Origin: a virus
Taxonomy: Monodnaviria; Loebvirae; Hofneiviricota; Faserviricetes; Tubulavirales; Inoviridae
Length of the DNA: 6,634 nucleotides
Direction: 5' to 3' (one strand)
IMG/VR virus record: IMGVR_UViG_2698536379_000001
Every line of letters starts with the position of its first letter. Position 1 is the stretch's first letter. The notes beneath the pieces are model-generated. The model saw only the letters and a list, made by a program, of their open reading frames with translations, did not search any database and was not told the DNA's origin. A program made the position numbers and the translations under genes. This document shows positions 1-6,554 of this stretch, one piece after another.

Positions 1-447
1 TTACTCTTCTCCAGATACCGCTTTTTTCATAAACATTTTAGTACTGTAAGTGTATGAACTTAAGGCAGAAACCTGCCTTGCGAGTGCCAGAATATCTTGT
101 TTTTCCAGTGTCCTGATGTTCCACACGATGAAATTATGTGCGTTAGTGGTTTCTTCATCAGTATATCCATCCGCAGAAGTGATTAGCTTCCGCTCGGTAG
201 CTTCTTCTTTAACATCAAGAGCATAGCCATAAGCTAAGGTGTTTAAGTCTGCACCCGTAATTTTAGCTATCTGAATGATGTCACTGAATTTAGGTTCAGT
301 TTTGCCGGACGCTATTCTGACCAGCGTACTCACGCTAATGCCAGTCTTCTCGGCCAGTTCTTCATAAGTCGAGTGTTCCAGAATTACCTTTTTGATACGT
401 TCTGCTCTCTGTTTGTCCGCCATAACTTCATGCTCATTGTTGCCCAT
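1..447 (-). CDS. HTH (XRE/Cro-CI-type) transcriptional repressor, RstR-like lysogeny regulator
   Basis: 148-aa ORF transcribed divergently from the Rep operon. N-terminal region STYEELAEKTGISVSTLVRIASGKTEPKFSDIIQIAKITGADLNTL has the helix-turn-helix pattern of XRE-family repressors. On the minus strand a GGAG sits 8 nt upstream of the ATG at 447; an in-frame alternative ATG is at 423. No S24-peptidase-like C-terminal domain is recognisable. Confidence 0.8.
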   Translation of the reverse strand: MGNNEHEVMADKQRAERIKKVILEHSTYEELAEKTGISVSTLVRIASGKTEPKFSDIIQIAKITGADLNTLAYGYALDVKEEATERKLITSADGYTDEETTNAHNFIVWNIRTLEKQDILALARQVSALSSYTYSTKMFMKKAVSGEE

Positions 448-493
448 CTACTTGGCTCCATCTTAACAGTGGTTTTTCAATAGTTAGATTTGA

Positions 494-557
494 TGCTCAT
501 TTCTGACAATTTAAACATTGCAAATGTATTGACTGTCAGATCTGAGCATATTACATT
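494..557 (+). promoter_or_regulatory. Candidate operator (imperfect 15-bp inverted repeat) overlapping a sigma70-like promoter for the Rep/structural operon
   Basis: TGCTCATTTCTGACA (494..508) and TGTCAGATCTGAGCA (534..548) are reverse complements at 13 of 15 positions. TTGACT (529..534), a 17-bp spacer, then TACATT (552..557) form a plausible -35/-10 about 60 bp upstream of the Rep ATG at 619. The repeat overlaps the -35 and spacer, as expected for repressor occlusion. Confidence 0.4.
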
Positions 558-618
558 GTGACCATTCAATCTGCTCACAAATGACTATTGACACATATTT
601 TGATGGGTGTGACTACTT

Positions 619-1671
619 ATGATCGACTGGTTTACCGGAATCCTGCCTTGCACACACCGACCGTTACCGGCTGGTAGTGTCGTCAGCGTCGATGCTGACG
701 GTGCAGTGGAGTGGGAAACAGTAAAACGGTTGACCGTTCGCGGTTCGCATGAGTCCACAATGAAAGTAAGGTCTGTTGGATCTGATGGTGAAGGTCGGGC
801 AACACATCTCTACATTGACGGTAATCCATCAAAGTTTTTGCAAGGTCACTCTGTTATCGGTTCCGACGATTTGCAAGGGTTGGTGTTAACAGCTTACGCC
901 AGAATATTGGCATTACTGCATATTCCTCATGATCTACCATCCTATCGGCAGGTCATGGAAGGGCAATTTAAGATCTCGCGCATCGATATCAATTACATGT
1001 ATTCATTGTCAACATTAGAAAATGTCCGCGCATGGTTATATGCCGCAGAATTTAAAGCTAAAACTCGCCACGGTCGCGCCTGTGGTAAAGGTGGCACTGT
1101 TTACTTAGGGAAAAACTCCCGTCGTTGGAGCCTGAAATTTTATTCAAAATATGATGAGCATACATCTGGCAAAAAAGGGCACCAGATGGCAGACGAATTC
1201 GTTAAAGCTGGTTTACTGGACTGGTCAAAAGATAAATTACGCATTGAATTAACATTAAGAACAACTGAATTAATTGATTTGAATCTTACGCTTGGTAATA
1301 GCTGGAATATTGAGACGCCCAATAAATTATTCTCTGACTATGTAGGGAGAATAGAAATGAATCAAAATACTATATTAACTGATGAAAAAATAATTAATCT
1401 CCCAAGAAAAATACAGTCTACATATTTATTGTGGAAGCAGGGCGCGAACATGAAAGAGATGCTACCGAAACCTACATTCTACCGACACCGTAAAGAATTA
1501 CTTTCTTTCGGAATAGATATTAACTTTTATTGTGAGTCACCGGATTCTAATAACGTTGTTCCGTTGGTTCGTACTCTTGAAGCCAAACCAGCCAAAATTC
1601 CATCATGGGTTTATGAGAAAGGTTTAATTTTCGATTATAACCGTATTTCACATGCCAGTAACTGGCATTAA
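619..1671 (+). CDS. Rolling-circle replication initiation protein (pII/RstA-like)
   Basis: 350-aa ORF, first gene of the plus-strand operon immediately downstream of the divergent control region, in the position and size range of inovirus pII / CTXphi RstA. Family assignment is by position and general character, not a verified motif match. Confidence 0.7.
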   Translation: MIDWFTGILPCTHRPLPAGSVVSVDADGAVEWETVKRLTVRGSHESTMKVRSVGSDGEGRATHLYIDGNPSKFLQGHSVIGSDDLQGLVLTAYARILALLHIPHDLPSYRQVMEGQFKISRIDINYMYSLSTLENVRAWLYAAEFKAKTRHGRACGKGGTVYLGKNSRRWSLKFYSKYDEHTSGKKGHQMADEFVKAGLLDWSKDKLRIELTLRTTELIDLNLTLGNSWNIETPNKLFSDYVGRIEMNQNTILTDEKIINLPRKIQSTYLLWKQGANMKEMLPKPTFYRHRKELLSFGIDINFYCESPDSNNVVPLVRTLEAKPAKIPSWVYEKGLIFDYNRISHASNWH

Positions 1672-1682
1672 AGGAGAGTGAT

Positions 1683-4602: not shown

Positions 4603-5628
4603 ATGGCTATTTCTGCATATATTGGCATACCCGGCTCAGGAAAAAGTTATGAAGCCGTTTGCAATGTCATTATTCCGGCATTTACCAGCGGCCGGAGAGT
4701 TGTGACGAACATTTATGGTTTACAAAAAGATAAAATCACCGAACGTTATCCTGATGCAACGGGAGAAATTATTGTTGTGGATAATGATGATGTGCTTAAA
4801 GCAGATTTCTTTCCTTTTAAAGGTGGGGAAGGGAGCTTTTGCCAGTTTGGTGATTTAATTGTTATTGATGAAGCATGGCGAATCTTCGGTAGCGATAAGG
4901 ATATGACGGCTGAGAAGAAATCATTTATTGCTGAACATCGTCATTTTACGCACCCTGAAACGGGTATTAGCTGTGATTTGGTTATTGTAAATCAGTCACT
5001 TTCTAATATTGCTCGCTTTCTGAAAGACAAAATAGAAACAACTTACCGGATGCGCAAGCTGAAAGCGTTGGGCCTGAATAATCATTACTGCATTGACGTA
5101 TATTCAGGCCACAAAATCTATAAAAGCAACCTCGTCACCAGTTATCGCAATAAATATAATCCTGATATTTTTGAACTTTACAAAAGCTATGAAGGAAATA
5201 ACGGTAATGAAAAGCAGACAGATAAACGCCAGAGCATCTGGAATTCTGGCAAAGTCAGGTTCTTTCTTGTGCTTTTTCCATTGATGTTTATCGGGTCAGG
5301 CTGGCTGATTTACTCATTTTTCAGCACGTTTGGCCGAAGCGATCCCTCGCCAGATTTGGCTACAACAGATGTACGTGATGCGGCCATGTTTCGTTCTTCC
5401 GCTGCTACTCCAGCACCAGATACTCCCTCAGAACCAGCTGAACCGCCACTTTCAACCGAGTGGCGTATATCAGGGAGAATGACCAGTGAAGGCAGGGCGT
5501 TTGTGATTCTTGTTAACAGTGCCGGTGTTTTGCGTGCCGTTCCTGCATCCAGTTTTAATTACAAAGGGATGTTGATGAGCGGAATTATTGATGGTGAGCG
5601 TGTGACGCTTTATACGGGGAAAAAATAA
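4603..5628 (+). CDS. Zot/pI-family phage assembly NTPase
   Basis: 341-aa ORF. Walker A GIPGSGKS at residues 7-14 and Walker B-like LIVIDEAW. One central TM segment (VRFFLVLFPLMFIGSGWLIYSFF), then a Pro/Ser/Thr-rich linker and a C-terminal periplasmic domain, the topology of pI/Zot proteins. Stop overlaps the next start (TAATG at 5626..5630). Confidence 0.9.
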   Translation: MAISAYIGIPGSGKSYEAVCNVIIPAFTSGRRVVTNIYGLQKDKITERYPDATGEIIVVDNDDVLKADFFPFKGGEGSFCQFGDLIVIDEAWRIFGSDKDMTAEKKSFIAEHRHFTHPETGISCDLVIVNQSLSNIARFLKDKIETTYRMRKLKALGLNNHYCIDVYSGHKIYKSNLVTSYRNKYNPDIFELYKSYEGNNGNEKQTDKRQSIWNSGKVRFFLVLFPLMFIGSGWLIYSFFSTFGRSDPSPDLATTDVRDAAMFRSSAATPAPDTPSEPAEPPLSTEWRISGRMTSEGRAFVILVNSAGVLRAVPASSFNYKGMLMSGIIDGERVTLYTGKK

Positions 5629-6056
5629 TGAAAAAGATTTCACTCGCATTAACGCTACTATTTTCTTCATGTGCTTTCGCAGGGGCAGAGCTTGAATTAA
5701 ATAAAGTCAAGCTACCGGAGGCTATTTCTCTTATTTACAGTGAGGTGCTTAAAGTCCCGTATATGCTAGATCCACAGCTTGTTAATGATGAACGAATGAT
5801 TACATTCAGGTTAACACCTGATATTGATGAACGGGAATTTGTAACCCGTTATCTTGGCAATATGAACATTCGAATATGGACGAAAAAGGGTGTTGATTTT
5901 ATCGCGCCCTATACGCCGAAAGAGCCGGTTAAGCCACGTTTTACATGGACTTATACGCCTCAGTACCGTTCTGTTGCCTACCTGTCTGATATTCTTGGCG
6001 GCTACGTTTCAGGCTCCTTCAATAACAGTGGAGCAATCGTTAACTGTCTGTTTTGA
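5628..6056 (+). CDS. Secreted/periplasmic protein with secretin N0-domain-like region (no secretin pore domain)
   Basis: 142-aa ORF translationally coupled to the pI-like gene, with GGGGA 7 nt upstream. Signal peptide MKKISLALTLLFSSCAFA with an AxA cleavage site. Mature region KLPEAISLIYSEVLKVPYMLDPQLVNDERMITFRLTPDIDEREFVTRYLGNMNIRIW follows the alternating pattern of secretin N0 domains as recalled from Ff pIV and GspD. The domain call is pattern-based inference. Confidence 0.65.
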   Translation: MKKISLALTLLFSSCAFAGAELELNKVKLPEAISLIYSEVLKVPYMLDPQLVNDERMITFRLTPDIDEREFVTRYLGNMNIRIWTKKGVDFIAPYTPKEPVKPRFTWTYTPQYRSVAYLSDILGGYVSGSFNNSGAIVNCLF

Positions 6057-6137
6057 AAGATAACGCCGGTCAGTGACAAAACTTGTTTTGTTGCTGTCCG
6101 GGGTTGGCCAAGCCGTACAGTTTCCATTTTCAGCGTT

Positions 6138-6386
6138 ATGGCTGATTCGGCGCGGCAGCATTCATCGGGGCTTATCATGGAAAAATTCATGACACATCAG
6201 GAGCTGAAAGTGATGCTTCTCAAAGATCCAGCATTCCGGGCTGCTTATGAAGCTGAGAGCCAGAACCCGCAATCCGGTTACCAGATTATCCGGCATCATG
6301 GTGATGGCACTGAAGAAGTGGTGTTTGATTCTCGTGTATCAGGTACAGATTTACCAACTAACTGGATGAACAGGCCTGATTGGTGA
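6138..6386 (+). CDS. Hypothetical small protein (accessory ORF adjacent to the attachment site); start codon uncertain
   Basis: 82-aa ORF. In-frame alternative starts are ATG 6177 (GGGG 6 nt upstream), ATG 6189, and GTG 6210 / ATG 6213 (AGGAG at 6199..6203). The region looks more GC-rich than the phage core by eye. No recognisable motif. Confidence 0.4.
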   Translation: MADSARQHSSGLIMEKFMTHQELKVMLLKDPAFRAAYEAESQNPQSGYQIIRHHGDGTEEVVFDSRVSGTDLPTNWMNRPDW

Positions 6387-6526
6387 GGTCAGGCCGTTCA
6401 CTTACTGCTGACAGACATTTGATTCTGATTCGTTTGGAGAAACGGATGATTTTGAATCACTGTCGATAGTAGCCAGTTGACGGCCAGTGTCAACGATTCC
6501 CGCCAGATTCTGCCATCCTTACCATT

Positions 6527-6554
6527 GGTGCGCATAATGTATATTATGTTAAAT
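6527..6554 (+). other. dif: dif site (XerC/XerD chromosome dimer resolution site), serving as prophage attachment junction
   Basis: GGTGCGCATAA-TGTATA-TTATGTTAAAT at 6527..6554 matches the canonical E. coli dif 28-mer as recalled (11-bp XerC arm, 6-bp central region, 11-bp XerD arm), 140 bp downstream of the last phage ORF. Confidence 0.9.

Follow-up and report, generated by a model that had tools for sequence, protein, structure and literature searches.

A 1,217-bp deletion in the secretin gene of a CUS-1/Ypf-like filamentous prophage at the Escherichia coli dif site

The 6,634-bp stretch of DNA analysed here (the window; IMG/VR record IMGVR_UViG_2698536379_000001) is a copy of an already described element, the inovirus prophage of the CUS-1/Ypf-phi family that lies at dif in Escherichia coli, and most of its secretin gene has been lost through a deletion that appears to have been inherited clonally. 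We put the probability of this explanation as a whole at about 0.8. The element is already known and the finding is an ordinary one. A sequence-only reading of the same DNA had noted that the phage core lacks both an integrase and a full secretin gene, and had concluded that integration depends on host XerCD and virion export on a host outer-membrane channel. The integrase half of this reading is supported, yet it is already known for the CUS-1/Ypf family; the secretin half, taken as a property of the phage, is not supported by comparison with its relatives.

About 100 complete E. coli genomes contain a full-length match to the window (99.4-99.9% identity), which in each case extends across some 7,850 bp instead of the 6,634 of the window. 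The top match is the O55:H7 strain DEC5E. In UTI89 and NU14 (O18:K1:H7), a dif prophage is 99.5-99.7% identical to positions 1-6554, the deletion aside, and the prophage in DEC5E and UTI89 sits between hipBA and the yde fimbrial operon. CUS-1 was described in the E. coli O18:K1:H7 clone (Gonzalez et al. 2002, as cited in PMC4266046); our equation of the UTI89 prophage with CUS-1 rests on this serotype and on the Ypf-phi review (PMC4266046). CUS-1 shares with the window phage the same site (dif adjoining hipBA), the same gene order and the lack of an integrase, and differs in that the window copy is without 1,217 bp comprising secretin residues 137-414 and an 82-amino-acid (aa) open reading frame (ORF). 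Ypf-phi (CUS-2) of Yersinia pestis is in turn 99% identical to CUS-1 across 7.1 kb (PMC4266046). It has a different host and other left-end ORFs (YPO2271/2272), and was compared with the window through its published description; its two-gene secretion module, YPO2279-2280, is reported to be lesion-free, unlike that of the window copy (PMC4266046). The window is a deletion derivative of a member of the CUS-1/Ypf lineage, not a separate family. The 13-ORF complement of CUS-1/Ypf, including a pI and secretin module, is incomplete in the window. Strain TUM14759 has a circular record of 9,565 bp (NZ_CP128883.1), deposited as an untypable plasmid, with 13 genes, an intact secretin, the attachment site and no recombinase. 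It represents a near-identical phage in its circular replicative form, and because the TUM14759 chromosome also has the prophage, the phage is active in this strain.

The secretin gene and its deletion

Compared with the DEC5E locus (L001), the window equals positions 6001-12034 joined to 13252-13851, with four substitutions and a clean gap of 1,217 bp. Of these substitutions, three are coding (two non-synonymous, one synonymous). The junction at 6034|6035 loses secretin codons 137-414, which is about two thirds of the gene, as well as a function-unknown ORF of 82 aa and the 42 bp that follow it. No microhomology was found at 6034|6035, so the sequence offers no clue to the deletion mechanism.

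What is left of the gene is a 142-aa ORF at 5628-6056. It matches phrog_1012, "protein IV of M13", over positions 1-138 of the 403-position profile (E = 1.7e-34), has no Pfam match, and its residues 1-136 are identical to the 414-aa secretin of DEC5E. The intact protein starts at the equivalent of window position 5628 and is annotated as GspD in DEC5E, UTI89 and the circular form; PHROG 1012 matches it from end to end, and the Secretin domain PF00263 occupies its residues 243-372. In alignments with solved secretin structures, that of f1 pIV (7OFH) among them, the intact protein is covered only from residue 146 on. Because both the structures and PF00263 lie beyond residue 136, the channel-building part is gone from the window copy.

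The sequence-only reading was accurate in that positions 1-6554 hold neither an integrase nor a full secretin gene; the ORF listing and the Pfam and PHROG scans cover the whole window, and no window ORF carries PF00263. It was also right that every ORF from the repressor to dif can be accounted for; one of these, however, is the truncated secretin. Use of a host outer-membrane channel is not supported as a trait of the phage. The full segment is present in 97 of the 118 complete genomes that hold any of the region, with an intact 414-aa secretin at the identical position, and the window differs from these secretin-bearing relatives by the single deletion inside it. That reading would have been overturned by an integrase or a secretin gene immediately upstream of position 1. 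We looked for both in DEC5E and in a sister contig of the window (L002), and neither is there; upstream of position 1 the sister contig has a 139-aa protein, a TIR-domain protein, a hybrid left-end dif (attL) and hipA. The secretin claim fails instead because the secretin sequence was deleted within the window.

The deletion allele is real. The window junction occurs in none of the 5,426 complete E. coli genomes, which, with the missing microhomology, hinted at an artefact of assembly or editing. This suspicion was overturned by an exact-protein look-up, in which the 142-aa product was listed on 24 contigs. Ten of these loci were fetched: two from NCBI draft assemblies, at least seven from Logan-assembled runs and one from an ENA metagenome. 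All ten align through the junction with 0-4 substitutions, and the window is 100% identical to positions 131-6764 of its source contig (L003, GCA_001277435.1). The same junction and the same product thus recur in NCBI, Logan and ENA assemblies made by different pipelines, and we consider the chance of an artefact negligible. The contigs show no branch at 6034|6035, and therefore no intact secretin copy lies alongside.

The host sequences to the right of dif are 99.95-100% identical among the contigs and to O55:H7 DEC5E. From this, it looks as though one deletion event has been inherited vertically in an O55:H7-like lineage and is not moving between hosts. In the metagenome contig (L011), a split Zot gene was considered as secondary decay and rejected, as the apparent indel consists of scaffolding Ns.

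The secretin gene is also damaged in other copies of the prophage. In strain 1410D004, the first copy of a tandem pair has an N-terminal deletion (L013 3074-3700). About 45% of the region is missing in FDAARGOS_1262, and an IS3 insertion lies in it in FDAARGOS_1300 (records NZ_CP069517.1 and NZ_CP069996.1). These independent lesions fit a recurrent decay of a costly channel gene.

Integration at dif

The right-hand coordinate of the phage core given by the sequence-only reading, 6554, is the final base of an exact E. coli dif: the 28-mer GGTGCGCATAATGTATATTATGTTAAAT matches positions 6527-6554 with 0 mismatches, while 0 of 200 shuffles match. At the other end, 1.75 kb upstream of window position 1, DEC5E and the sister contig carry a hybrid site, GGTGCGCATAA-TGTACGACTCG-TTATGTTGAAA, made up of a host XerC arm, a phage centre and a XerD-like arm. 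In DEC5E this site occupies L001 4248-4280, adjoining hipA and outside the window, and a TIR-domain protein and a 139-aa protein are all that is encoded between it and the window. About 35 bases past the hybrid site, an inverted dif-like site follows in both sequences; the inverted pair is seen only in these two and in the circular form (L012), in each case outside the window. In the circular form, the right-end sequence of the window runs directly into the same attachment site; in a circular form of the deletion lineage, the phage right end would be expected to join ...GGTGCGCATAATGT(G/A)CGACTCGTTATGTTGAAA....

The plus strand of the attachment region is predicted to fold into a hairpin of -30.7 kcal/mol (z = -7.35), and 0 of 200 shuffles are as stable. 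This hairpin pairs both XerC-like arms and both XerD-like arms around a bulged centre. An element-encoded recombinase is absent from the window, from the 13-gene circle and from the left parts of the sister contig, DEC5E and UTI89 (L014). By Pfam and PHROG scans, no window ORF on either strand matches a recombinase family, and the only ORFs above 148 aa on both strands are gII (350 aa), the pIII-like gene (570 aa) and Zot (341 aa); these sizes and the missing family match leave no space for a tyrosine or serine recombinase. An intact dif at one junction with a hybrid site at the other is the arrangement of phages that exploit Xer recombination in the manner of CTX, and it is what we observe here. 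The dependence on XerCD proposed from the sequence thus agrees with the perfect dif at the right junction and with the missing recombinase in both the window and the 9,565-bp circle.

We suggest that in the packaged (+) strand the two inverted dif-like sites would fold into a hairpin imitating duplex dif, and that host XerC and XerD would recombine this hairpin with the chromosomal dif. This would yield the intact dif at 6527-6554 on the right and, at the left end beyond the window, the hybrid site together with the second inverted site. Catalysis by XerCD and the role of the hairpin as substrate are inferred; for the CUS-1/Ypf family, XerCD dependence is already published. The attP sites of CUS-1 and Ypf have the features for CTX-type integration of single-stranded DNA (PMC3089051; proposed also in PMC4266046). 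Ypf-phi integrates at dif, restores dif at the 3' end and has inverted XerC and XerD binding sites in its packaged genome (PMC4266046). CTX-phi of Vibrio cholerae also has no integrase and is integrated by XerCD through a folded (+) single-stranded site at dif, and it shares with the window phage a repressor divergent from the replication gene and a Zot-type pI, although beyond these domain families there is no meaningful sequence similarity between the two.

Loss of export and its alternatives

Members of this family normally make their own export channel, a 414-aa secretin of the pIV/GspD type translated right after the pI/Zot ATPase. The single 1,217-bp deletion leaves a signal-peptide-bearing stub of 142 aa without the outer-membrane Secretin domain. 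All other phage genes are intact, and the prophage can probably still be repressed and perhaps replicate and produce its virion proteins. In Ff phages pIV is essential, and their pI-pIV interaction is specific; on this analogy we infer that export is lost. The window is then most likely a decaying prophage unable to extrude virions by itself, not one adapted to a host secretin. In Ypf-phi, the genome is organized into replication, morphogenesis and secretion modules (YPO2274-2280, with YPO2279 and YPO2280 for secretion), and disruption of YPO2274, YPO2277 or YPO2279, one gene per module, abolishes particle production (PMC4266046).

The phage could alternatively be secretin-less by design and extrude its virions through a host secretin such as GspD, HofQ, a type IV pilus secretin or a type III secretin. 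CTX-phi extrudes through the EpsD of its host. Passages of PMC10011098 and PMC4471427, citing Davis 2000 and Bille 2005, give precedent for this in secretin-less inoviruses, the remaining morphogenesis genes of the window are intact, and the deletion allele persists in many isolates. However, in CTX-phi and MDA-phi a whole lineage is without a secretin gene, whereas the family of the window encodes one that only this copy has lost: the phage has its own secretin at the same position in the 97 complete genomes and in the circular form, and the state of the window is a single derived deletion. The allele, moreover, occurs only with near-identical host flanks, as vertical inheritance predicts and transmission of a phage does not, and the different lesions of the same gene in 1410D004 and FDAARGOS_1300 resemble decay instead of adaptation. 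We therefore consider the use of a host secretin improbable. A helper is another candidate: an intact phage of the CUS-1 type, co-resident (for example as a tandem copy) or superinfecting, could supply the secretin in trans. Multiple copies are common, with a median of 2 places per genome and a maximum of 5; Ypf-phi forms arrays of 2-4 copies (PMC4266046); the lesioned copy of 1410D004 is directly followed by a second phage copy; and there are hints of a partial left-end duplication in the source lineage. Against this stand the independent assemblies that cross the junction unbranched, which leaves no intact copy at comparable coverage, and the clonal host flanks, and we rate helper dependence a shade lower than the host-secretin route. 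Nothing in the analysis points to either.

Several observations weigh against the explanation of a decayed, export-defective prophage. The clonality was judged on a flank of about 9 kb, not on whole genomes. The left end of the prophage lies outside the window, and the source contig begins 130 bp upstream of it, so the left-end junction and the hairpin were taken from the sister contig and other relatives. The loss of export is deduced from general knowledge of Ff phages. Because every other phage gene is intact and there are few coding differences from DEC5E, the allele is either young or still maintained in function, which sequence decay cannot yet separate. It is accordingly conceivable, though we think it very improbable, that the allele is not simply dead. 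The stub might act as a decoy that binds pI/pXI of incoming CUS-1-type phages, in which case a translationally coupled 142-aa periplasmic stub would be kept to block their export; or the copy might be an intermediate that uses a host secretin, in which case it would catch in progress the change that CTX-like phages must have gone through in the past.

The explanation by decay has a simple consequence for reading such sequences: the absence of a gene from one prophage copy is no life-style trait of the phage until its relatives have been checked. In the present case, dependence on XerCD is textbook knowledge for the CUS-1/Ypf family, and a private deletion of 1.2 kb accounts for the host-secretin part. 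The result also records, for the genomics of E. coli, an O55:H7-like lineage with a CUS-1-type prophage whose export channel has probably been lost. The recurrent independent lesions of the secretin gene are compatible with a cost of a leaky outer-membrane channel to the lysogen.

Gene map and genomic neighbourhood

The window carries the Inoviridae gene set (gII/X, gV, major coat, pVI-like, pI/Zot) in canonical order and one orientation, as seen from the Pfam, PHROG and ORF maps. Gene identities are settled by domain and PHROG matches and by annotated relatives of 99.9% identity. The features are as follows.

1..447, minus strand: helix-turn-helix repressor, 148 aa (PF01381 HTH_3, 1.6e-9; identical to WP_000527682.1)
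448..618, no strand: repressor-gII intergenic control region with putative divergent promoters and operators, assigned by position only
619..1671, plus strand: gII replication initiator with nested gX, 350 aa (PF05144, 1.2e-73; PF05155, 3.6e-34)
1683..2000, plus strand: single-stranded-DNA-binding protein gV, 105 aa (PF17426 Putative_G5P, 1.2e-52)
2003..2254, plus strand: small membrane protein in the minor coat position, 83 aa (phrog_3679, 1.1e-32; RefSeq relatives named "membrane protein")
2289..2522, plus strand: major coat protein, 77 aa (phrog_2186 virion structural protein, 4e-29; PF05356 weak, below cutoff)
2587..4299, plus strand: adsorption protein in the pIII position, 570 aa in the longest ORF (phrog_3942, 4.5e-253; gene order)
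4312..4599, plus strand: pVI-like minor coat protein, 95 aa (PF10734 DUF2523, 1e-20)
4603..5628, plus strand: pI/Zot assembly ATPase, 341 aa (PF05707 Zot, 2.2e-26)
5628..6056, plus strand: secretin remnant, 142 aa, consisting of the signal peptide and N-terminal 136 residues, 6 foreign codons (IVNCLF) and a stop (phrog_1012)
6138..6386, plus strand: conserved small ORF, 82 aa in the longest form (65 aa annotated, from 6189; phrog_6642, 1.1e-53; WP_001298440.1 in relatives)
6387..6537, plus strand: phage right end into the XerC-binding arm, identical to the sequence before attP in NZ_CP128883.1
6527..6554, plus strand: reconstituted dif (attR), with XerC arm GGTGCGCATAA, centre TGTATA and XerD arm TTATGTTAAAT (exact match)
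6555..6634, no strand: host chromosome flank, terminus region toward the yde/F9 fimbrial operon (genome matches; annotation of L001 and L014)

The repressor WP_000527682.1 is annotated in DEC5E, UTI89 and the circular form, and its slot, divergent from the replication gene, is the RstR/YPO2273 position of Ypf-phi (PMC4266046). In the intergenic region, a promoter-like site lies on the plus strand at 529-557, with the promoter scan overall at chance level. A megablast search of the phage collection with the whole window found nothing; Lineavirus I2-2 was found only at the protein level, where gII is 57.8% identical to its gene II. The Ff, IKe and I2-2 phages (Inovirus, Lineavirus) share the gII/X, gV, coat, pVI, pI and pIV-type secretin modules with the family, but are non-integrating and have neither repressor nor dif-like attachment site, unlike the window phage. 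A terminator-like hairpin with a 10-bp stem (2534-2556) lies directly 3' of the major coat gene. Ff phages have a strong terminator after gene VIII, and the arrangement of coat gene and terminator is likewise found here.

The pIII-position protein is annotated in RefSeq at 520 aa, from a start at 2737. By position only, it would correspond to puvA of CUS-1, a virion protein needed for receptor binding (PMC4266046). Further downstream, the stop codon of Zot and the start of the secretin remnant overlap by 1 base. In Ypf-phi, two ORFs of unknown function adjoin the right end (PMC4266046), and the ORF at 6138-6386 is in the same place. A 78-aa ORF on the minus strand (6398-6634) starts in the host flank, crosses dif and stops in the phage right end; it is called by gene callers on many contigs, has no family match, and is probably a spurious product of the phage-host junction. 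Some part of the window is matched by 3,573 of the 5,426 E. coli genomes, and the phage itself is present in about 100. The Rfam scan of the window gave no matches, and the repeat scan gave only short matches at chance level and, within the window, no dif-like site besides the one at 6527-6554.

Two kinds of rearrangement were observed next to the prophage. In the source contig, the first 89 of the 130 bases that precede the window are gII sequence (window 624-712, codons 2-31) fused into a hairpin loop; this hairpin lies 43 bp left of window position 1 and the fusion reads GTGCAGTG|GAGTAATACTGCAC in place of GTGCAGTGTTGGTAATACTGCAC. Four other contigs (L004, L005, L006 and L008) begin at k-mer overlaps ending exactly at window position 712. 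These ends suggest a 755-bp tandem duplication of the repressor, the intergenic region and the 5' end of gII in part of the deletion lineage; the duplication is absent from the sister contig and from all complete genomes. On the other side, four deletions of 1,845, 781, 3,647 and 5,090 bp, with 0-1 bp of microhomology, affect the yde/F9 fimbrial operon in the first 5 kb right of dif in L001-L006, and set apart hosts whose sequences otherwise agree at 99.95% or more. For two of these deletions the left ends lie 2 bp from each other, immediately upstream of a fimA-like start codon. Together with the 1,217-bp phage deletion, the four flank deletions mark the region adjoining dif as structurally unstable.

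The left-end cargo, two or three genes, differs between copies of the same phage (L001 4350-5901; L013 4672-6233; L014 1635-3274). DEC5E and the sister contig encode the 139-aa protein and the TIR protein, which is of the CAP12/Pycsar type (PADLOC matches PDC-S35 and PycTIR), while UTI89 encodes proteins of 369 and 140 aa. In 1410D004, the same slot holds a PD-(D/E)XK nuclease (matches to Aga_Helical-REase and PDC-S35), a DUF6953 protein and a 140-aa protein. To judge from these matches, the left-end slot looks like a site for swappable, defence-like cargo in a filamentous prophage.

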